Origin: Escherichia phage vB_EcoM-RPN242
Sequence record: OL656110.1
Reading direction: 5' to 3' (one strand)
DNA: 64,000 nt
Part shown: positions 7,172-61,715 of the stretch, piece after piece
How the letters are laid out: each line of letters begins with the position of its first letter
Numbering within the stretch: position 1 is the stretch's first letter
Notes under the pieces: model-generated
Told to the model about the DNA's origin: nothing
Database searches by the model: none
The model's input: only the letters and a program-made list of their open reading frames with translations
Translations under genes and position numbers: made by a program

Positions 7172-7264
7172 CTGGATTTCTCCGTTGGGTTAATGTTTAC
7201 TTTCATGTTCACTACAAGAGGACTACATCTTACCTAACAAAACATATTGAATAAAGCGAAATTA

Positions 7265-8452: not shown

Positions 8453-8508
8453 GATATAGTCACTCAAATGAAAGGGCAGCTTTATGATAAGCCGCCCGAG
8501 GTTATTGA

Positions 8509-9375
8509 TTATTGGAAATCGCCAACATACATATTCAGCTTGTCGTCCCAGTTCAGAACGACACGGATCGTTCCAGTATCTTCTGGGAAGGTCAGTTTGT
8601 CACACATGGCGCGATTAACATAAGTCCCGCTCTGGTTGACGTTGTAGTCCTTGCCTTGCATGATACCAAAACGCTTGAAGTCGCGAGTGACCATCATGTT
8701 CAGAGTTGTCCAAGGGATTGCATCGCGCAGGGCTTTGCACAGGACGATCTTGCCATCCGACCTGAACGACACAAACAGCTCGTTGGCGACACGACGGCGA
8801 GTAGGCGGTTCAAGTTCACGCAGGGAAATGAATTGTGAATTCTTTACCTTTTCTGCCAGCGCCTGTACTTCTGCTGGATCCGGCTTGAACGGCTCCACTG
8901 AAGAGTCAGACTTCATCACAACGTCACCCTTGCGCTTCTCGACCAATTGCTCCACAGCCTTTTGACTCACGGGCGGGAGGTATTTGGACTTAGGAACAAC
9001 CGCTGGCTTGATGACAGGGCTTGCATCTGGTTTCGCCTTTGGGGTACTCCGAGCCGCACGCAGCTTTTCCTGGGCTTCCAGAATGCGCTCTTGACGAGAA
9101 AGCGGAGCCTTTGGGGTGATCTTCGTACTGAAGTCAGAAACGCCGACCCAGTCACCCTGGTCATTACGCTTGGCCACCAGAGTCAGTTTGTGGATGATAC
9201 CCTGAAGTTTGCTCTCACGTAAGTTGTCGGCATACCAGAACTTCGCGCCCATCTCGAACTTCTCGGCGAAGATCACGCGAGCGTCTTCGTGTACCAACAT
9301 AACTTTGGCTGCGTTGGGGGCAAAAGCCTTATTCTTTTCGATAATCGCCGCAGCGATTGTTTTGGTCAGGAGCAT
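8509..9375 (-). CDS. hypothetical protein with Pro/Lys-rich linker
   Basis: 288-aa ORF; SD AAGGAA upstream of ATG 9375; two globular halves joined by a PKAKPDASPVIKPAVVPK linker. Confidence 0.55.
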   Translation of the reverse strand: MLLTKTIAAAIIEKNKAFAPNAAKVMLVHEDARVIFAEKFEMGAKFWYADNLRESKLQGIIHKLTLVAKRNDQGDWVGVSDFSTKITPKAPLSRQERILEAQEKLRAARSTPKAKPDASPVIKPAVVPKSKYLPPVSQKAVEQLVEKRKGDVVMKSDSSVEPFKPDPAEVQALAEKVKNSQFISLRELEPPTRRRVANELFVSFRSDGKIVLCKALRDAIPWTTLNMMVTRDFKRFGIMQGKDYNVNQSGTYVNRAMCDKLTFPEDTGTIRVVLNWDDKLNMYVGDFQ

Positions 9376-11807: not shown

Positions 11808-11866
11808 GATATAGTCTCTTGGTTTCAAATGGGCGGGGTAATCATACCCCGCCCAAAGTTATAGAA

Positions 11867-18852: not shown

Positions 18853-18966
18853 GATGTAATCTTCCTGTTTCAGTTCAAATGTGCGCCCCGTTTGCCAGGG
18901 CGCTTCGTTTAAGTGAGGTCAGTATACGCTGGATTGAGTTATTGAAGAACGAAGTAAAGGGAATCT

Positions 18967-21157: not shown

Positions 21158-21195
21158 CTTAGAATACGAAAACAGAGGCCATTATAGCCTCTGTT
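21158..21195 (-). terminator. intrinsic terminator after gene 21218..22090
   Basis: 9-bp stem AACAGAGGC/GCCTCTGTT followed on the minus strand by TTCGTATTCT. Confidence 0.5.
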
Positions 21196-21217
21196 GTTTA
21201 GTGAATAACTGTATATC

Positions 21218-24767: not shown

Positions 24768-24898
24768 TTGTATGTATCCTCAAAATATAGTGGGGGTTCA
24801 AGTCATGTTTGACGCAATCTAGTATCGCTGTGTTTTGTTTATAGAACAAGTGGCAAATTGCGCTACGCGTTATTAATAAATGCCTTCGGCATTTATGG

Positions 24899-24952
24899 AC
24901 TTTATTAAAGATAATAACCTTTATTAAAGATAATAATCTTTATTAATCCTAT
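24899..24952. repeat. tandem direct repeat (about 2.5 copies of a 20-bp AT-rich unit)
   Basis: ACTTTATTAAAGATAATAAC / CTTTATTAAAGATAATAATC / TTTATTAATCC, within a 360-bp AT-rich intergenic region. Confidence 0.7.
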
Positions 24953-24979
24953 TCGCTTCGCTCATAAAACAAATACTCG

Positions 24980-25009
24980 TTGTTCGCTAACGCTCACAAC
25001 TCGTATAAT
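24980..25009 (+). promoter_or_regulatory. sigma70-like promoter candidate for the plus-strand gene at 25129
   Basis: TTGTTC, 18-nt spacer, perfect TATAAT, about 120 nt upstream of the start. Confidence 0.4.
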
Positions 25010-25128
25010 ACCACGCCATTGTTCAACAAGAAAGCAGTTTTTATTCAACAGCAAAATTAATTTATTTGGTCTAAACATGCACGCGAAATAATATGTATGT
25101 CATGTTAACCAACACACGAGAGTAATAT

Positions 25129-31196: not shown

Positions 31197-31398
31197 GATA
31201 AAGTCCTCTATTTGTAGGGGATAGGGTATGCGGTTAACATACCCTGTTCAAAGGTTTAGAACAAATTGCTGCAATGTTACTTTGTAACGAGAGTGGTGAT
31301 AGTTCCTTCATTTCAGAGTCAGTGTTGTGCTGCTTATGGAATGAAGTATACGGGGTTTATTGAAGAATTAAACCCCGTATATTGAATAAATTTAAAAT

Positions 31399-32104: not shown

Positions 32105-32329
32105 TCAAAGAATGTTGTGTTCGTCGATATCGGACTGCGTTGCAATCTCCCAGCGGACGATGTTCTCGGTTGTGACGAAATCACGGTTCAGGTGAGAGGC
32201 TGGCACATACACCATCGTGTCGACCATGAAGTAACACTGCTCATTGTTACAAGAATCAACGTAAACCTCGATGAGGCACACCTCGGCAACACCGGCTTTC
32301 GGCTTCTTCACGATCTTTTTCAAGTACAT
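32105..32329 (-). CDS. hypothetical protein
   Basis: 74-aa ORF with SD GAGGG; a 32-bp repeat element lies 26 nt upstream. Confidence 0.5.
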   Translation of the reverse strand: MYLKKIVKKPKAGVAEVCLIEVYVDSCNNEQCYFMVDTMVYVPASHLNRDFVTTENIVRWEIATQSDIDEHNIL

Positions 32330-32354
32330 GGTACAACCCTCGGATAAGTAGACG

Positions 32355-32386
32355 GGGCAATAATACCTCTCGCCCCGTTATTGAAA
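32355..32386 (-). repeat. 32-bp conserved intergenic element, copy B
   Basis: GGGCAATAATACCTCTCGCCCCGTTATTGAAA, identical to 32615-32646; ends about 26 nt upstream of the next start codon. Confidence 0.7.
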
Positions 32387-32389
32387 CTG

Positions 32390-32590
32390 TTATCCTTCTT
32401 GTTCTTCCCAACCCCATTCATCTTCCCAAGACTGGCGAGGGGTCTTGCCTGCTTCGTAATCATCACGCCAGGCGTCGGCGTCGGCGGCTGAACCGCCCTG
32501 GCTTTTCGCGACTTTGCATAATACGTCGTGCCACTCACGGAAAGTGGAGTTGGCGACTGTGGTGTTTACAGAATCTTCTTTCAGGCTCAT
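32390..32590 (-). CDS. hypothetical acidic Trp-rich protein
   Basis: 66 aa from the ATG with SD GAGGA; flanked on both sides by copies of the 32-bp repeat. Confidence 0.45.
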   Translation of the reverse strand: MSLKEDSVNTTVANSTFREWHDVLCKVAKSQGGSAADADAWRDDYEAGKTPRQSWEDEWGWEEQEG

Positions 32591-32614
32591 TGTGATTTCC
32601 TCGATTAATAGAGA

Positions 32615-32646
32615 GGGCAATAATACCTCTCGCCCCGTTATTGAAA
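32615..32646 (-). repeat. 32-bp conserved intergenic element, copy A
   Basis: Identical to 32355-32386; ends about 25 nt upstream of ATG 32590. Confidence 0.7.
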
Positions 32647-32653
32647 TGTTCTT

Positions 32654-34126
32654 TTAGTTCAAGACATATTTGATCAGTCCACAATTCCAAATCCTGACCA
32701 ACCCGGCTTCGGTTGCTAACTGGCTTTCTGTTTTGCCTTCTACGTCATACCCCATGCGAGCAAATGAACCTTTTCTGAAACCGAATTTGTGCTCACGCAT
32801 AAATGTGCCAGGCTTGTGATATTTGTAGTCTGGCTTCTGTACTTCCTCTTCTATGAATCCGTGGGATAGGTAAATGTTGGACAACCTGCTTACAACACAC
32901 CTATCCCCAAAGGAATAGATTTTGGTGTCGGCAAATTTTCTTCTGAAGTGTGAAAGAAGTTTACTGAATGCCCCGTGGCAATCATTAGAGGCAAATCTGA
33001 CTAATTCCAGGCCATCTTTCCTTTTAGTGAATAGCATCACGGCTTGTATGACCCCACTCTTGTCAATTAACGATAAATGGTGGGTGGAAGAAACGGAACC
33101 TTGTATGTGGTGGTTGTCTAAAAACTCCCTCAAGCCGCTTATATTTCCCCAAACGACTTTGTGTTGGCGAGCATATGACGCAGGCGTTTTAATGCCAAGT
33201 TTAGCTTTCAGAAGAGATTTGACCACTTCCTGTTTCTCAACCCATTCATCTTCCCAGATGTGGATCAACTGGATACCCTGAGATTCACATATTTCAGTCT
33301 TTTCCAGGTGATAATATTTCTCTTTAAAAACTTCTGAATGCCAGTACAGGCCATTAAATTCAATCGCCAATTTGTGTTCAGGGCAATAGATATCCAGTTG
33401 TTTACCGGATAATATACTGTAATCAGAAACAGTGTTTACAACTCCCATTGAGGTGAGAAACTCGGATATTTCCTTTTCATAAGAAGATTTCTTGTTCCTG
33501 ATAGAACCATTGCTGAACAACGCACGTTTTAGTATGTTCGAGTTTTTCATAGGGTTGTCAACACCATAACGTTCTTGTAACGTTGCCAACGCCTTCTCCC
33601 TCACACCAGGTAATTGTAGTGTGGAGCAGCTTCCGTATTTGGATATATTCGAAGTCTCTATGGCTTTCCGACCAATCCCACCTTTACACATAGAAACCTG
33701 ATAACATTCTTCAGAACAATATGTTCTGTAATCTTTATTATTGATATAAAAGTTGGTTTCCTTGGAACACACCGGGCATATTTTCACGGTTCTATTGTAC
33801 AGCCAAGCTGTGACTTTACAAGCCAAATCTTGTAGGGTGTTGTGGGTATTGGCGAACGCTAAAAGGTCTACATTGATGTGCTTCATAAGCAGTTCAGATT
33901 TGCATTTTTGGATATCCAATTTGTTGTTCTTGGTAAACATATATTTGTAGAAAAATTGGCGATATGATTCCTCGTCAGACAATTCATTCACTGCTTCAAG
34001 GAAACCTTCCGGGAGGTTCTTTAGGGTGTTCGATGCGAAGGTCTTGCAAGCATCTGAACAAAATTTCTTATCTTTCCTGGATGCTTTGAACTGTTCATGG
34101 CAGACACTACAGATTACCTGATACAT
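32654..34126 (-). CDS. zinc-ribbon plus restriction-endonuclease-like (Vsr/DUF559-type) protein; putative free-standing homing endonuclease
   Basis: N-terminal CxxC pairs; C-terminal LAIEFNGLYWHSE...IHIWEDEW resembles the Vsr/PD-(D/E)XK core. Strong SD GGAGGAGA upstream of ATG 34126. Inserted just downstream of the major capsid gene. Confidence 0.45.
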   Translation of the reverse strand: MYQVICSVCHEQFKASRKDKKFCSDACKTFASNTLKNLPEGFLEAVNELSDEESYRQFFYKYMFTKNNKLDIQKCKSELLMKHINVDLLAFANTHNTLQDLACKVTAWLYNRTVKICPVCSKETNFYINNKDYRTYCSEECYQVSMCKGGIGRKAIETSNISKYGSCSTLQLPGVREKALATLQERYGVDNPMKNSNILKRALFSNGSIRNKKSSYEKEISEFLTSMGVVNTVSDYSILSGKQLDIYCPEHKLAIEFNGLYWHSEVFKEKYYHLEKTEICESQGIQLIHIWEDEWVEKQEVVKSLLKAKLGIKTPASYARQHKVVWGNISGLREFLDNHHIQGSVSSTHHLSLIDKSGVIQAVMLFTKRKDGLELVRFASNDCHGAFSKLLSHFRRKFADTKIYSFGDRCVVSRLSNIYLSHGFIEEEVQKPDYKYHKPGTFMREHKFGFRKGSFARMGYDVEGKTESQLATEAGLVRIWNCGLIKYVLN

Positions 34127-34170: not shown

Positions 34171-34204
34171 TATGAACAAATAAAAACCCCGCCGAAGCGG
34201 GGTT
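34171..34204 (-). terminator. strong intrinsic terminator after major capsid gene
   Basis: AACCCCGC-cgaa-GCGGGGTT followed on the minus strand by TTTTTATTTG. Confidence 0.7.
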
Positions 34205-34230
34205 TGTCAGGGTTAAGGACAACTATTCGA

Positions 34231-35553
34231 TTAGAAAAGTCCCTTAATTAACCCTTTGCGGAAATACACGTTGCTGTCCTTGGCGATACCATCCGCAGTC
34301 ACATAGACCTGTGGATCCTGGTTCGCTGGGATCTGAACGAATGGGTTAGCACAAATCCCGTAGCGGGTCTTGAATGCCATACGTGGTGCGAAGGTGGTTT
34401 CACCCTGGGTGCGGTACATTTCCAGCGGTACATACGGTGCGAAGAAGATACCAGCGTCCAGCGCGGTTGCGCCTTTGTATGCCAGGGTGATGTATTCTGC
34501 TACTGCATACGGGTCGATGTAGACACGCATACCGTTAGACAGCACACCAGCGAAGGTCTGGCCAGTCGGATCAATCGCCAGCTTGGTGTTTTCCTGCAGC
34601 GCCGGAGCATAATCCAGCATGCCGGACATCGCCAGAGCGGATGCTACGTTCGGAGAACACAGAACACGGTTGCCTTTACCACGACGGGTATCAACACCGA
34701 TGCCGTTCGCTTCAACTTCCAGCATGAAAGTCATGTACTTCCATTTTTCCAGCGCCCAACGACCGGAGATGTCAGTGGAGATATCTACGATACCATTGGT
34801 GCCGAATTTTTTGAAGCGTACTGCGCTGAAGTTCATGGTGCGGATAAACTCACGGTTCATCTCTGCCTGAATTTCAGTTACCATCACGTCGGACAGGATG
34901 CTGTCAACGTCTTCGCCGTGGATCGCCATCATGTCCTGGCGCAGTTCGTGGCTGTAGTCAGCGTACAGGCCACGAGACTTCGCAGTCACGGTTGCTTTCT
35001 GAACGGTGATACCAACACGTGCCCATGGGTTGGTGGTGGTGCCCAGCAGTTCGGCGTCGGTAGTTGACATACCTTTACCGATGGTGGTAGCAGCGCCGGA
35101 ACCTTCGATCTCAGTCTGGGAGAAGCCAGATGGGTCGCCAGCCTGTGCAGTGTCGTCACCAGAGTAGCCAGAATCAGCTTCCTGCATGAACAGTTCTTTA
35201 CGGGAATGTTGGGTGTTGGAGCCGCCGTCTGAAATGCCCTGGCGAGCACGCAGTGCGAAGATCTGACCGTCAGGACCAGACAACGGCTGAACGCCGAAGA
35301 AGTCCATCGCGATGTTGACCGGAGCCAGACGTTTGGCCATGTCGATCAGGACTGGCTGCCATTTGCCCACAGAGGCGTTCACGGAGCCAGGAGCGTCAGA
35401 TTCGCCCAGGTTTTTGGCGTTCCACTCAGCCTGGTTTTGCAGCAGACGGACGGCAACGTTTTCGGCAGAAAGCGGCTGGATGCTTTCAGATTCTTTCTGA
35501 AGAACTGGCAGCCACTGCTCGCGCATTTGTTCGGTAACAAGTTTCTTAGCCAT
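34231..35553 (-). CDS. 23: major capsid protein (T4 gp23-like)
   Basis: 440-aa ORF with a gp23-type sequence pattern; SD AAGGAA 8 nt upstream of the second ATG; strong terminator downstream; sits in 20-21-22-23 synteny. Confidence 0.85.
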   Translation of the reverse strand: MAKKLVTEQMREQWLPVLQKESESIQPLSAENVAVRLLQNQAEWNAKNLGESDAPGSVNASVGKWQPVLIDMAKRLAPVNIAMDFFGVQPLSGPDGQIFALRARQGISDGGSNTQHSRKELFMQEADSGYSGDDTAQAGDPSGFSQTEIEGSGAATTIGKGMSTTDAELLGTTTNPWARVGITVQKATVTAKSRGLYADYSHELRQDMMAIHGEDVDSILSDVMVTEIQAEMNREFIRTMNFSAVRFKKFGTNGIVDISTDISGRWALEKWKYMTFMLEVEANGIGVDTRRGKGNRVLCSPNVASALAMSGMLDYAPALQENTKLAIDPTGQTFAGVLSNGMRVYIDPYAVAEYITLAYKGATALDAGIFFAPYVPLEMYRTQGETTFAPRMAFKTRYGICANPFVQIPANQDPQVYVTADGIAKDSNVYFRKGLIKGLF

Positions 35554-35644
35554 GATGGTCATTCCTTACATTGATATTCAGTTAAGTTGAAATTACTTAG
35601 TAGTTCAAAATCAAGCCCCCTTTCGAGGGCTGTGGCTGCTAAAA

Positions 35645-53585: not shown

Positions 53586-53947
53586 TATACAACCAACCGA
53601 GGAATAGAAAGAAATAAGCCCGAAGGGGCTTTGATTATCTTTCTGTGGTTATGGTCATGGATTCAAGACCTCCGCATTCTTCAGGAACTATTGCAGGGGT
53701 GCTGGTACAGCCAGGGAATGGAGAACGCAAACAAGGCGAACCAATGGAACCACAGTAGTAGGTTCAGATGCTAGTGTTAAGGTACAGGGTACAGACATTG
53801 CCAACAGAGATAACGTATTAGCCACTTACACACTTGGTTCGACAGACCCTTTCATGGTAGAAGGTATTCAATTGGGTATGTTTAATATCTCTGGGCAAGT
53901 AATCACCTTAACAGCAGTATCAATTAGGGTAATGCAAACAGTAAATT

Positions 53948-53978
53948 CTATATAAGAAAAGACCCCAAATGGGGTCTT
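53948..53978 (-). terminator. intrinsic terminator after tailspike 1
   Basis: AAGACCCCA/TGGGGTCTT hairpin followed on the minus strand by TTTTCTTATATAG. Confidence 0.6.
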
Positions 53979-53995
53979 AGTTTTACAGTTATAAG

Positions 53996-56221: not shown

Positions 56222-56497
56222 AATGACCTCTTTGTTTTTCTAAGTAAGCCTCCCAACGTGGGGAGGCATGTAAGTAAAGTTATTTACCGATTCTCAATTC
56301 AGCTAACCAACCTAGAATTTGTTTATTGATTCTAGACGGGTAAGCAGCCTCTAACCATGCACATCGGTCTGGTATTAAACCTCACCTTGAACCAGCAGGA
56401 GTAACAAATTCTTTCCATCCTTTCTGTAGAACTCAGGTATACGCTTCTTTAATACCATTATTACCAACAATACTTGCATACACAACAGACACTAAAC

Positions 56498-56530
56498 TCT
56501 ATATAAGAAAAGGTCCCGAATGGGACCTTT
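56498..56530 (-). terminator. intrinsic terminator after tailspike 2
   Basis: AGGTCCC-gaat-GGGACCT hairpin followed on the minus strand by TTTCTTATATAG; the same flanking motif CTATATAAGAAAAG as at 53948. Confidence 0.55.
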
Positions 56531-56539
56531 ATAATAAAA

Positions 56540-58963
56540 TTAAGGGCTAACCCGATACCACCCGTCGTAGCTAATATACAAACGTTTACCGGACACAACT
56601 GCATCAATGCGAAGCGTTTTTTCACCTTCAGTAAAGAACGCTCCTCCAGTGTTCCCGATGTTCATTCGAAAGCTGGCTGGAATATTTCCAGAGGTAAAAC
56701 CGATGTCCCCGTTGTTCACCCCTGTTACTGCTATGTATGCGTAATCCCGCGCGACAGGAAATCCTGTCACAGATATGAACTGACTGGTGCCGGAACTCCA
56801 TTCAATTGTCACATCAAACACACCGAATATATGAGCAAAATCTCCGACATAATTTATGTTATGTACGGTATACTCGCCGTATGATATCACCGCATTGGTG
56901 CCTGATTGAACTGTAATTTCAGGCGAACCGGGGTCATTCGCTAAGAAAGTACGGTCTGGTCTGATTTTGGCGGATGAATTCGCCACCGTTCTGGTAACGT
57001 TGTTGAGCCAACCGGCCTCCACCGGATCCCCATTTCGCGTAGACCTTACAATGTTGTTACGCAATATTGCGTTAAAAAACGTAATATCGGAGATGTAAAT
57101 ATTATGGTGCTGCCCGGCTACGGCCCCGCCAAACAACATCCCATTAGAGTTGTACTCATAAGATACGTTGTTCTCAATGATGCTGTTGCGCGCCACTCCA
57201 TTTAATTCTAGCCATGATATGTTAGACGGGCCTGTGTAATCAGAACCAAGTCTAATACTGGTGTTATTGGTGAATGAGCTATGGTCGAAATTATCCAATC
57301 TCCAGTTAATACCCAGAGTGCCTTCTTGACCATTCCCAGTTACCGTTACCCCTAGCAGGTTCTGTAATATATAGCCATAACACACTCTTGTCCTGTCCGG
57401 ATAATAGTCGTTCCTGTTAGTGTGATCACAGGCATTAGCCTCTATAACAGAGTATTTAAGATCCCGATAGCAATGCCCATAATCACGGCAACTATTACTA
57501 TAGTTAGTAGATATTACGCATGAAGTGCCGTTGTTTATAAATATCCCACCGAGACATGCGGTAACGCGGTTGTTTCCTACTCGCGACGCAAATACAACAG
57601 GGAGAATTAGCCCATACTTGCAATCGTAAATATAGACGTCTTCTATCGTGGCGTCGGATACCACGCCTGCATTTACGATACCAAATTCTACCGCGTGGTT
57701 TTCCGTTGTAGTTTTTGTCCCATGCAGAGTAACCCCTGTGATGACACCGGACCATCTTGAACTACTAGAATCCCCTAAACAAATAACCGCATTCATATCT
57801 GTAGGCAGGGTTCCGGTATATCCTCCAGATAGTGCAGGCGCCGTCACCAGAACTGTAACGGTAGTGGATGTCGTTTTCGTTATAGTAACTGATTCGCGAC
57901 TTCTCCCTATTACTGATACATTCGATGGTAGAGCAAGAGTACTGCTTATTTTATAGTTACCATCCGGGAAATAAACCACGCCTTTTGTGGTGCTGGCATA
58001 AGCTATAGCTGCTTTTATAGCTACCGTATCATCAGTAGCTCCGTCACCAACAGCACCAAAATCTTTAACGTTATAGTAGTCTTTAAAATGGCTATCAATG
58101 GTTCGCTTAATTGCAGAAGAAACACCAGATAAGCCAGAATTTACTAATGTTCCCCCATCAGTAACCATAGCCGTTTTATATACCTGCAACTCATTCTCCA
58201 CTGGAGTTACATCATTGGGTGCAGGGAGCAGGTCAACAACAATCCCACCAGGATTGTATGTTAGTTGGTCACCATTAACGGAAGAAATATATACGTTAGT
58301 AGGCAATGTAGGCAACCCATATGCCTTCTGCTCACTAACAGAATAAATAATCTTCTTACCATTGAGGGACTGAGTAGTATCGGTGCTAAGAATTACTTCA
58401 CTATCTTTAACGTTAGTAGCACGAGCGATTTCTTGAATACTTCGGTCAAACAACGGACTGATATTCGGTTGTTTAACAGACATTTCAGCGACTACCCAAA
58501 CGCCTGCTGTCAGCGCAGTTTGTAAAGACACTTTCCCTGTCGTGCTGTCATAGGAATATTCAATTTCGGGTGTTTTGTACTCACCACCGATATAAAGAGA
58601 TTGGACTCCATAAGATGTGTAATCAGGAGTGAACTCGGTTTCACCTCCTATAGCCTGAAACTTATAGATTCGAATCCCAGTTTTATAATCTTCTGGAGAC
58701 AGAATCTTATCAAACAGACAGAACACAACGTCACCTTTGGATAATGCGCGTCCGAGATTTAACGTATTTCCATCGATTTCAAAGTTGTCTAACGGAACTT
58801 GCATACCACCGTTGATTGTGACTATACCAGTGACAGGGTAGAAAGGGAGGGAGATAAACTTCTCTCCGCCCGTTGCTGTGTAAGTGTATGGAATCTGGTG
58901 CGGAGCTGTTACGACCGCTCCAAAGATGCTCTCGACGTTTCTGGTCATTTGAAAATACCCCAT
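56540..58963 (-). CDS. tailspike protein 2 with extended N-terminal anchor and pectate-lyase-like beta-helix
   Basis: 807 aa; an N-terminal region of about 200 aa precedes the shared ARATNVKDSEV module; YNVKDFGAVGDGATDDT is the pectate-lyase-superfamily signature. Confidence 0.8.
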   Translation of the reverse strand: MGYFQMTRNVESIFGAVVTAPHQIPYTYTATGGEKFISLPFYPVTGIVTINGGMQVPLDNFEIDGNTLNLGRALSKGDVVFCLFDKILSPEDYKTGIRIYKFQAIGGETEFTPDYTSYGVQSLYIGGEYKTPEIEYSYDSTTGKVSLQTALTAGVWVVAEMSVKQPNISPLFDRSIQEIARATNVKDSEVILSTDTTQSLNGKKIIYSVSEQKAYGLPTLPTNVYISSVNGDQLTYNPGGIVVDLLPAPNDVTPVENELQVYKTAMVTDGGTLVNSGLSGVSSAIKRTIDSHFKDYYNVKDFGAVGDGATDDTVAIKAAIAYASTTKGVVYFPDGNYKISSTLALPSNVSVIGRSRESVTITKTTSTTVTVLVTAPALSGGYTGTLPTDMNAVICLGDSSSSRWSGVITGVTLHGTKTTTENHAVEFGIVNAGVVSDATIEDVYIYDCKYGLILPVVFASRVGNNRVTACLGGIFINNGTSCVISTNYSNSCRDYGHCYRDLKYSVIEANACDHTNRNDYYPDRTRVCYGYILQNLLGVTVTGNGQEGTLGINWRLDNFDHSSFTNNTSIRLGSDYTGPSNISWLELNGVARNSIIENNVSYEYNSNGMLFGGAVAGQHHNIYISDITFFNAILRNNIVRSTRNGDPVEAGWLNNVTRTVANSSAKIRPDRTFLANDPGSPEITVQSGTNAVISYGEYTVHNINYVGDFAHIFGVFDVTIEWSSGTSQFISVTGFPVARDYAYIAVTGVNNGDIGFTSGNIPASFRMNIGNTGGAFFTEGEKTLRIDAVVSGKRLYISYDGWYRVSP

Positions 58964-58984
58964 AAAGGATTTGCCAATATGGGG

Positions 58985-58991
58985 TATTTAG
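58985..58991 (-). promoter_or_regulatory. late-promoter-like motif CTAAATACCCC upstream of tailspike 2
   Basis: Part of a conserved cassette repeated at 61647. Confidence 0.45.
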
Positions 58992-59014
58992 TCTGAACTA
59001 ATAAATTTATAAAC

Positions 59015-59044
59015 AAATGTATAGAGAAACCCCGCCGAAGCGGG
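59015..59044 (-). terminator. intrinsic terminator after tailspike 3
   Basis: CCCCGC-cgaa-GCGGGG hairpin, the same core as at 34187 and 61693; T-rich on both sides. Confidence 0.6.
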
Positions 59045-59066
59045 GCTAGTTTTTATTTGTGGTGTG

Positions 59067-61616: not shown

Positions 61617-61646
61617 GATAATACCCCAAGAATGACCAATATGGGG

Positions 61647-61653
61647 TATTTAG
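61647..61653 (-). promoter_or_regulatory. late-promoter-like motif CTAAATACCCC upstream of tailspike 3
   Basis: Part of a conserved cassette repeated at 58985. Confidence 0.45.
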
Positions 61654-61675
61654 TCTGAACTAATAAATTTATGAA

Positions 61676-61710
61676 CAAAGTTATAATAAGAACCCCGCCG
61701 AAGCGGGGTT
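61676..61710 (-). terminator. intrinsic terminator after tailspike 4
   Basis: AACCCCGC-cgaa-GCGGGGTT hairpin with T-rich flanks. Confidence 0.6.
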
Positions 61711-61715
61711 TATTG

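Follow-up and report, generated by a model that had tools for sequence, protein, structure and literature searches.

A probable promoter/stem-loop cassette and its recombinant duplicate around a small gene of an Ackermannviridae phage

Promoter-early stem-loops (PeSLs) are cassettes between small non-essential open reading frames (ORFs) of several T4-type phages (RB49/phi1, T4/PST and KVP40/nt-1); in each, a G(n)...C(n) stem-loop accompanies a sigma-70-like early promoter and an AT-rich tract (Arbiol et al. 2010, PMC2839356; Comeau et al. 2014, PMC4122927). The promoter and terminator action of PeSLs was shown by lacZ fusions; experiments also showed that recombination between two PeSLs releases the ORF that they enclose as a mini-circle, and PeSLs have been linked to insertions and deletions (indels) between close relatives (PMC2839356, PMC4122927). 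Phage nt-1 also has 'PmSLs', which contain a Mot box and a TATTAT -10 element (PMC4122927), and in T4 middle promoters a MotA box lies ~12 nucleotides (nt) upstream of a TAnnnT -10 and is used through sigma appropriation by MotA and AsiA (PMC2988021, PMC4122927). Here we analyse a stretch of 64,000 nt from Escherichia phage vB_EcoM-RPN242 (sequence record OL656110.1; hereafter the window), in which a 32-bp element, GGGCAATAATACCTCTCGCCCCGTTATTGAAA, occurs in two exact copies that bracket a gene of 66 amino acids (aa) (Table 1). We consider it likely that the element is a PeSL-like composite promoter/stem-loop cassette, that copy 1, upstream of a 74-aa gene, is ancestral whereas copy 2, upstream of the 66-aa gene, is a recombinant formed beside a homing endonuclease gene (HEG), and that the repeat pair deletes the 66-aa gene.

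Both copies lie where an initial annotation of the window had placed them, and its account of the neighbouring genes and of a distance of 'about 25 nt' to the next gene was correct. Copy 2 begins 7 nt past the stop of the HEG (32654) and ends 24 nt ahead of the ATG of the 66-aa gene, and copy 1 begins 3 nt past the stop of the 66-aa gene and ends 25 nt ahead of the ATG of the 74-aa gene; in both cases the downstream ATG has a GAGG Shine-Dalgarno (SD) sequence. Every gene in this part of the window is on the minus strand, and on this coding strand the element reads TTTCAATAACGGGGCGAGAGGTATTATTGCCC. The similarity of the two copies runs to 44 nt at 91% identity, with lower identity in the 12 bases beyond the 32-mer. 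No third copy of GGGCAATAATACCTCTCGCCCCGTTATTGAAA is present in the window at up to three mismatches, and 100 dinucleotide-preserving shuffles gave 0 matches. What the initial annotation had overlooked was the minus-strand reading, the chimeric nature of copy 2 and a family of about 25 cassettes per genome.

The window phage belongs to the Ackermannviridae (ViI-like), subfamily Aglimvirinae, and its closest records are Escherichia phages LHE287, A221, YX22 and ZQ1. We found the element in 45 phage records at 94-100% identity, nearly always as a single copy and, in these relatives as in the window, only at gene boundaries. All clear matches are Ackermannviridae; the carriers include Agtrevirus, some Kuttervirus, Dickeya phage RC-2014, and Yersinia and Enterobacter phages. 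The absence of any match in 185,579 species genomes and in 5,426 E. coli genomes rules out an origin in bacteria or the host. A pattern scan of IMG/VR yielded 3 loci, a protein scan 1 and a metagenome scan 2, which is too few for covariation analysis, so we used GenBank phage records.

On the minus strand, the first two parts of the proposed cassette would be an upstream box, TTCAATAA, and a -10-type TATTAT exactly 12 nt downstream of it, from which transcription would start about 7 nt further on, leaving a leader of about 20 nt that carries the SD of the next gene. The third part would be a G-run/C-run inverted repeat around the -10. The first two parts recur in diverged relatives of the element. 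Upstream of the 66-aa gene, Ag3 and PhiSH19 carry a diverged paralogue (TTCAATGT-ttaggatgaggg-TATTAT-tgccctctctattaat in PhiSH19), and at this locus the paralogues and orthologues of May, phiEa2809 and CBA120 have in common only TTCAATAA and a TAnnnT 12-13 nt downstream. We therefore scanned for a class of sites defined by the box TTCAATAA with at most one mismatch, a spacer of N11-13 and then TAnnnT. Copy 1, or cassette E, is a perfect-consensus member of this class (TTCAATAA-N12-TATTAT).

The class is statistically enriched. In the window there were 9 matches, against 2.06±1.43 in shuffles, and each of the 7 on the coding strand lies in an intergenic spacer just ahead of a start codon. The complete genome of Ag3 has 29 matches (2.87±1.89 in shuffles), of which 23 are co-oriented with the local genes, and the matches change strand with gene orientation along the genome, in both strand domains. 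Nine matches were found in the syntenic 45 kb of CBA120 (3.57±1.50 in shuffles; 9 coding, 0 other strand) and eight in the syntenic 46 kb of May (1.93±1.36 in shuffles; 7 coding, 1 other strand). Most members have a 12-nt spacer and the others one of 11 or 13 nt, the distance from the end of the -10-like hexamer to the start codon is mostly 28-41 nt, and the upstream AT content is 0.61, compared with 0.50 for the genome, which amounts to a weak AT-rich tract. At position 134996 of Ag3, a class member sits between divergent genes, in a region that must contain a promoter. The Ag3 record labels one class member 'putative extended -10', and in LIMEstone1 another, similar in form, carries an early-promoter annotation.

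Box, spacing and hexamer are also the parts that evolution has kept. Orthologous cassettes from four genera retain all three while the spacer sequence varies. Sibling D, which lacks a hairpin, conserves box, spacing, hexamer and downstream leader in four genera but has ctcaatccagcg, cttttttcaacg, atcttttcagcg or ctgtaatcgggg as the spacer between TTCAATAA and TATAyT, and sibling F keeps box, spacing and TAnnnT in four genera with changing spacer sequence. At the locus under study the same retention is seen in the P66 cassettes of Ag3 and PhiSH19 and in May, phiEa2809 and CBA120, and copy 2 of YX22, although diverged by 3 substitutions, has its box, spacing and TAnnnT intact. Because the sites are enriched, strand-correct, intergenic and conserved across genera, and because structural genes have a different motif, we infer that these sites are a class of promoters that serves non-structural genes. 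Among the functions that the initial annotation had offered for the element, a promoter is the best supported by these sequence patterns.

Conservation of the 32-mer in 45 records, the presence of an inverted repeat and the invariance of the box, which may well bind protein, could also be expected of an operator, a site at which a regulator from phage or host controls nearby genes, by repression or activation, without the site itself being a promoter. We regard this as quite unlikely: the arms of the inverted repeat are wholly different among class members, which leaves no common site for a dimer, and what is conserved is a box and, in the geometry of a promoter, a -10-like hexamer, on the coding strand and at a promoter-like distance from start codons. 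Nor is it at all probable that the repeat arose by a recent, neutral duplication and lacks a function. The identity of the two copies in the window and in A221 does point to recent exchange rather than to selection on every base, and in other genomes the copies differ at 1-4 positions; however, several genera conserve the single-copy element at 94-100% identity and at the same boundary between genes, and its two blocks fit a class enriched about 10-fold over chance.

Similar to T4 middle promoters, the element has a box centred near -29 to -30, placed 12±1 nt from a TAnnnT, and no usable -35, and as in the PmSLs of nt-1 the -10 is TATTAT. By contrast, TTCAATAA is unrelated to the MotA box, (a/t)(a/t)(a/t)TGCTTtA, and does not match it. 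MotA, AsiA, Alt and ModA have been reported absent from ViI-like phages (Kutter et al. 2011, PMC3184105); we made no search of our own for MotA- or AsiA-like proteins. A standard host promoter was rejected as an explanation, as a sigma-70 scan did not call the element and canonical promoters (TTGACA-N17-TATAAT) were not enriched in this genome. A further candidate, TTTCAA as a -35 with a 15-nt spacer, was dropped once the paralogues revealed an 8-mer box at a fixed 12-nt spacing.

Early and middle promoters were described as not identifiable by the authors of the CBA120 genome paper (PMC3184105), and other papers on ViI-like phages predicted promoters only by similarity to the E. coli or T4 consensus (PMC3121705, PMC3296691). 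In the literature searched we found no transcript mapping, reporter data or promoter description for Ackermannviridae, Kuttervirus or Viunalikevirus and no description of the TTCAATAA class; this literature covers few subscription journals, so that the latter is weak evidence of absence.

About half of the class carries the third part of the cassette. The window holds at least 5 siblings besides the two identical copies, and Ag3 about 23 co-oriented members, of which 11 of 23 have a hairpin around the -10 with a z score of -2 or below, that is, a G-rich/C-rich inverted repeat that encloses the hexamer. The sibling hairpins fold with z scores from -3.6 to -7, those of the window cassettes at 11866, 8509 and 21205 from -3.6 to -5.3. 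Directly after the DNA polymerase stop of Ag3, for example, the sequence is AGGGGGA-TATAAT-TCCCCCT. In cassette A, four sequences from four genera keep 10 pairs, with 2 compensatory GC-to-AU changes and 3 changes that preserve G.U pairing, a pattern which indicates that this hairpin is selected at the RNA level. An independent scan classed three cassettes as terminator-like, with a T-run behind them, and the siblings at 8497-8474 and 21195-21171 have the GC-rich stem, short loop and U-tract of intrinsic terminators.

For the element itself, the GGGGC...GCCCC hairpin that the initial annotation had described is complete in copy 1, where it has 9 bp (RNA fold -15.6 kcal/mol, z score -2.2), and the lack of a T-tract that it had noted holds for both copies; in copy 2, however, the 3' arm is GCCCT and the fold is no better than that of shuffles (z score -0.9). 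The loop of cassette E measures 9-13 nt and is followed by CUACUUAUCC or CUAUUAAUCG in place of a U-tract, and the terminator scan made no call at the element. The only common change in the stem of E orthologues is C to T, which gives a G.U pair. We also tried an H-type pseudoknot (CAAUAA/UUAUUG with GGGGC/GCCCC) and rejected it; its AU stem simply arises where the box overlaps the -10 flank, and the siblings do not conserve it.

In all hairpin-bearing members the 3' arm begins 1-3 nt past the hexamer, so a start ~7 nt downstream would fall inside the arm, and RNA from the cassette's own promoter, beginning there, would be unable to form the hairpin. In RNA reading through from upstream, the inverted repeat would fold and the hairpin attenuate or end the transcript. 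Hairpin-bearing members could in this way act as insulators, joining a terminator to a promoter. In the T4 genes e, soc and I-TevI, hairpins that hide the ribosome-binding site contain a promoter, and the shorter transcripts from it escape the structure. The predicted start of the element likewise lies inside the 3' arm and would leave its own transcript free of the hairpin, but the SD is outside the hairpin of E, whereas the neighbouring P183 cassette of Ag3 and CBA120 does hide its SD.

A related observation concerns the cassette upstream of the orf183 homologue (TTCAATAC-N12-TATGCT; Ag3, locus L005, 1812-1903; CBA120, L012, 2117-2203; RC-2014, L006, 2090-2181), which is replaced by an HEG in the window. 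Its hairpin, CCTGTTGTATG...CATACAACAGG, is 11 bp long and overlaps the SD AGGAG with its 3' arm; the ribosome site would be hidden in read-through transcripts and exposed in those started at the cassette. In the window, the minus strand at 31340-31385 carries TTCAATATACGGGGTTTAATTCTTCAATAAACCCCGTATACT, a 10-bp hairpin with one TTCAATA box flanking it and a second in the loop and 3' arm. This hairpin is conserved in Ag3, CBA120, Maynard and LIMEstone1 (annotated there as an early promoter) and misfits the 12-nt spacing rule.

The hairpins raise the question of whether the element acts at the RNA level only, as a stem-loop between the cistrons of a polycistronic transcript that it ends, pauses or stabilises or whose processing it directs, with the hexamers incidental. 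The 9-bp hairpin of copy 1 fits this view, as do the G.U-tolerant covariation of the sibling hairpins, the resemblance of several siblings to intrinsic terminators and the fact that the annotators of May labelled some of these sites as terminators; like a rho-independent terminator, the element places a GC-rich hairpin immediately past a stop codon, and several siblings have a U-run. However, about half of the class lacks a hairpin and still keeps the box, the 12-nt spacing and TAnnnT, and both blocks are kept in copy 2 and in the May orthologue, neither of which has a significant hairpin. A fixed distance from an 8-mer to TA...T is foreign to terminators and to known RNase sites, and the long loop and missing U-tract of E are unlike a rho-independent terminator. 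No Rfam covariance model matched at the element at an E value of 1 or below, and nothing supports the RNA processing site that the initial annotation had suggested. On balance, a purely RNA-level element seems unlikely.

A PeSL-like cassette, our preferred interpretation, can be compared with the PeSLs point by point. Both copies fill the spacer from the upstream stop to the SD and ATG, between small ORFs of unknown function; they have a -10-type element, with a G-run/C-run stem that is present in copy 1 and weak in copy 2; the cassette family is repeated in the genome, with the two copies and at least five siblings in the window and about 23 members in Ag3; and there are indels between close relatives, five of which lack one repeat together with the 66-aa gene. 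The differences are that the host family is Ackermannviridae rather than Straboviridae, that there is no -35 at N16-18 (N17 in PeSLs) but a TTCAATAA box at N12, that the stem-loop encloses the -10 whereas that of PeSLs lies just upstream of the promoter, that the upstream AT-rich tract is weak, and that E has no U-tract. Moreover, promoter activity, terminator activity and mini-circles, which have been demonstrated for PeSLs, would be predictions for the element here.

Several points weigh against this interpretation. Promoter function is proposed from sequence statistics, and the start site, a box-reading factor and an attenuator role of this hairpin are likewise putative. The box is unlike the sigma-70 -35 hexamer and, at -32..-25, lies 3 nt too near the -10 for a standard -35, so that host RNA polymerase alone may not use it. 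Any protein that reads the box would differ from MotA; we identified none, and no candidate box-binding protein was searched for. The hairpin of the element is moderate in copy 1 and not significant in copy 2, and neither has a U-tract, which makes a terminator role of E weak, and the E orthologues are nearly invariant and offer no covariation of their own. Finally, the order of duplication and deletion may have been the reverse, with the one-copy HEG arrangement older than the two-copy one.

A broader proposal, which we put forward tentatively, is that TTCAATAA-N12-TAnnnT is the pre-replicative (early/middle) promoter class of ViI-like phages, with the box read by a phage-encoded factor, and that placing the -10 in a terminator loop is a general means of insulation in cassettes that also serve as linkers for gene shuffling. 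A phage-encoded reader is suggested because the box occupies the position of the T4 MotA box and is unusable as a sigma-70 -35, in a family reported to lack MotA and AsiA. If our preferred interpretation is correct, it would give a concrete, testable early/middle promoter candidate for the Ackermannviridae, which are widely used in biocontrol of Salmonella, E. coli O157, Shigella, Klebsiella and Dickeya. PeSL-type regulatory cassettes acting as recombination linkers would then also exist outside the T4-like Straboviridae, and in a tighter arrangement that has the -10 within the hairpin.

Comparison of genomes suggests how the second copy arose. Ag3, PhiSH19, RC-2014, CAU_YEP3, EspM4VN and pSal-SNUABM-02 have one copy, at the position of cassette E. 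Because the copy is always immediately upstream of the 74-aa gene in single-copy genomes with no HEG at the site (Ag3, PhiSH19, CAU_YEP3 and EspM4VN), the position of copy 1 is probably ancestral. Copy 2 is chimeric: its left 32 nt are of the E type, and its right flank, TCTCTATTAATCGAGGAAATCACA, is identical to the native cassette upstream of the 66-aa gene in Ag3. The two parental cassettes share GGTATTATTGCCC (PhiSH19 form), across which copy 2 would have been born by recombination or gene conversion between copy 1 and the paralogous cassette of the 66-aa gene, in a lineage with an HEG at the site. The crossover falls between tgccc and tctctatt in the window and A221, and between tgccccgtcta and ttaatc in PC3 and fGh-Ecl02, and the junction of YX22 reads taccctctc with two other substitutions. 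With three crossover points, either the cassettes exchanged more than once or the conversion tracts differed in length. Since all two-copy genomes have an HEG directly left of copy 2, although not always the same one (490, 508, 622 or 662 aa), double-strand-break repair during homing is a plausible trigger of the duplication.

These same facts could be taken to mean that the element is the target site or homing footprint of the adjacent HEG, duplicated in double-strand-break repair. A free-standing HEG does lie 7 nt from copy 2, an HEG occupies the site in all two-copy genomes, and break repair with a crossover in a paralogous cassette would yield exactly the observed chimera. Nevertheless, such a target is highly improbable: unlike a disrupted homing site, the element is intact and identical in genomes with and without an HEG; most of the family of about 25 cassettes per genome lie far from any HEG; and the HEGs of the two-copy genomes are different ones. 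Homing may account for the origin of the duplicate, but not for the nature of the element.

The 66-aa gene is variably present, as the initial annotation had proposed to check. It is absent from LHE287, ZQ1, AV101, CECAV_050 and ChubbyThor, in which the order is HEG, E and 74-aa gene, and the same arrangement is found in IMG/VR contig L008. Alignment of LHE287 (99% identical to the window), ZQ1, AV101 and CECAV_050 shows a 260-261 bp indel that comprises one repeat and the 66-aa gene, with its boundaries inside the repeat. This is the product expected from crossing-over between direct repeats, and the 32-bp repeats would thus be substrates with which the phage recombination machinery removes the gene. 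Of the mobile-cassette footprint that the initial annotation had envisaged, gain or loss of the 66-aa gene and one repeat as a unit, with boundaries in the repeat, was borne out, but the repeat appears as a recombination substrate rather than a transposon end.

To the left of E, almost every genome examined carries a different sequence (66-aa, 104-aa, 285-aa and 64-aa genes, different HEGs, and an unrelated flank in L009), whereas the 74-aa and 147-aa genes are always on its right. Because its left side is variable and its right side constant, E is the fixed edge of a hyperplastic segment. The locus is a clean natural example in which two-copy, one-copy and chimeric states have all been sampled. 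If our interpretation holds, such cassettes would mark sites of natural gene gain and loss without disturbance of the neighbours, which is of use in phage engineering, and flanking a transgene with identical cassettes would be expected to favour its loss. As a separate observation, the last bases of a 104-aa orf183-like gene (RC-2014, L006, 2182-2496; pSal-SNUABM-02, L026, 2282-2596) are those of the 66-aa gene (GAAGGATAACAGT), which suggests that another deletion joined orf183 to the end of the 66-aa gene and so caused one more independent loss of this gene.

Table 1. Positions in the window of the repeat, its parts, sibling cassettes, neighbouring genes and a second motif
Feature	Position	Strand	Remark
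Copy 1 (cassette E, probable ancestral position)	32355..32386	-	upstream of 74-aa gene
Copy 1 box, TTCAATAA	32385..32378	-	
Copy 1 spacer, 12 nt	32377..32366	-	
Copy 1 -10-like TATTAT	32365..32360	-	
Copy 1 hairpin arms, ACGGGGCGA and UUGCCCCGU	32378..32370 and 32360..32352	-	
Copy 1 predicted transcription start	about 32353 ±2	-	
Copy 2	32615..32646	-	upstream of 66-aa gene, 7 nt after HEG stop
Copy 2 box	32645..32638	-	
Copy 2 spacer	32637..32626	-	
Copy 2 -10-like TATTAT	32625..32620	-	
Copy 2 right flank, TCTCTATTAATCGAGG	32614..32599	-	type of the native cassette upstream of the 66-aa gene
Sibling A, TTCTATAA-N12-TATGAT	11825..11866	-	hexamer in loop of 9-11 bp hairpin; -24.8 kcal/mol, z -5.3
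Sibling B, ATCAATAA-N12-TATCAT	8474..8509	-	in 9-bp hairpin, then TTTCATTT; terminator-like by independent scan
Sibling C, TTCACTAA-N11-TATAAT	21171..21205	-	in loop of 11-bp hairpin, then T-run; terminator-like
Sibling D, TTCAATAA-N12-TATACT	18921..18946	-	no hairpin
Sibling F, TTCAATAT-N11-TAAGAT	7227..7251	-	upstream of homologue of Ag3 orf127 (HU-like DNA-binding protein)
Major capsid gene	35553..34231	-	chosen ATG; longest ORF begins at 35562
Intrinsic terminator, AAACCCCGCTTCGGCGGGGTTT + T-run	34184..34205	-	after major capsid gene
Free-standing HEG, 490 aa, phrog_3339	32654..34126	-	directly left of copy 2
66-aa gene, phrog_519	32390..32590	-	function unknown; bracketed by repeats
74-aa gene, phrog_7113	32105..32329	-	function unknown; downstream of cassette E
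CTAAATAY, first bases	27037, 30234, 36530, 42798, 47035, 47075, 53585, 58991, 61653	-	

The genes around the repeat follow the order major capsid, terminator, 490-aa HEG, copy 2, 66-aa gene, copy 1, 74-aa gene and 147-aa gene. The terminator is strong (34205-34184) and parts the late capsid transcript from the HEG and the small-gene cluster. The 490-aa HEG has weak matches to Vsr, DUF559 and MTES_1575 nucleases and is a homologue of LIMEstone1 F-LimVII ('Hef-like'). In all genomes with the element, the gene to the right of cassette E is the 74-aa gene. In Salmonella phage Maynard (L013, 2095-2940), a GIY-YIG HEG separates the capsid gene from the 147-aa gene, with none of the small genes and no cassette E at this locus. 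The locus is a recurrent landing site for different HEGs of the Hef-like, NUMOD3 and GIY-YIG types. Further along the window, a non-coding spacer of 200 nt (31197-31398) stands at the place of the 93-aa gene of Ag3 (orf178), and the leader and tail of the orf178 region are still present in it; the counterpart of orf178 is lost from the window phage, as from A221 and LHE287, by a deletion without cassette boundaries.

A second motif, CTAAATAY, has 9 matches in the window, all on the coding strand, compared with 2.35 expected. Those inspected are found a short distance ahead of structural (late) genes, and the motif, which may be compared with T4 TATAAATA, is likely a late-promoter motif; the late signal of ViI-like phages was left unidentified in the CBA120 paper. 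In the tailspike region, as recognised by synteny with Ag3, a cassette of ~75 nt places a UUCG-loop terminator (CCCCGCTTCGGCGGGG) ahead of the late-type motif ACTAAATACCCC (58974-59048 and 61636-61711, also 53935-53991 and 56486-56542). It is repeated at 94-96% identity, its downstream end is about 20 nt before the next large gene, and it may be a linker for the exchange of tailspike modules. Finally, the divergent intergenic region upstream of a sliding-clamp homologue (24768-25128) contains a tandem TAAAG(A/G)TTATTATCTTTAATAAAG repeat and a hairpin, CCATAAATGCCGAAGGCATTTATT, and could be a regulatory or origin-like region.

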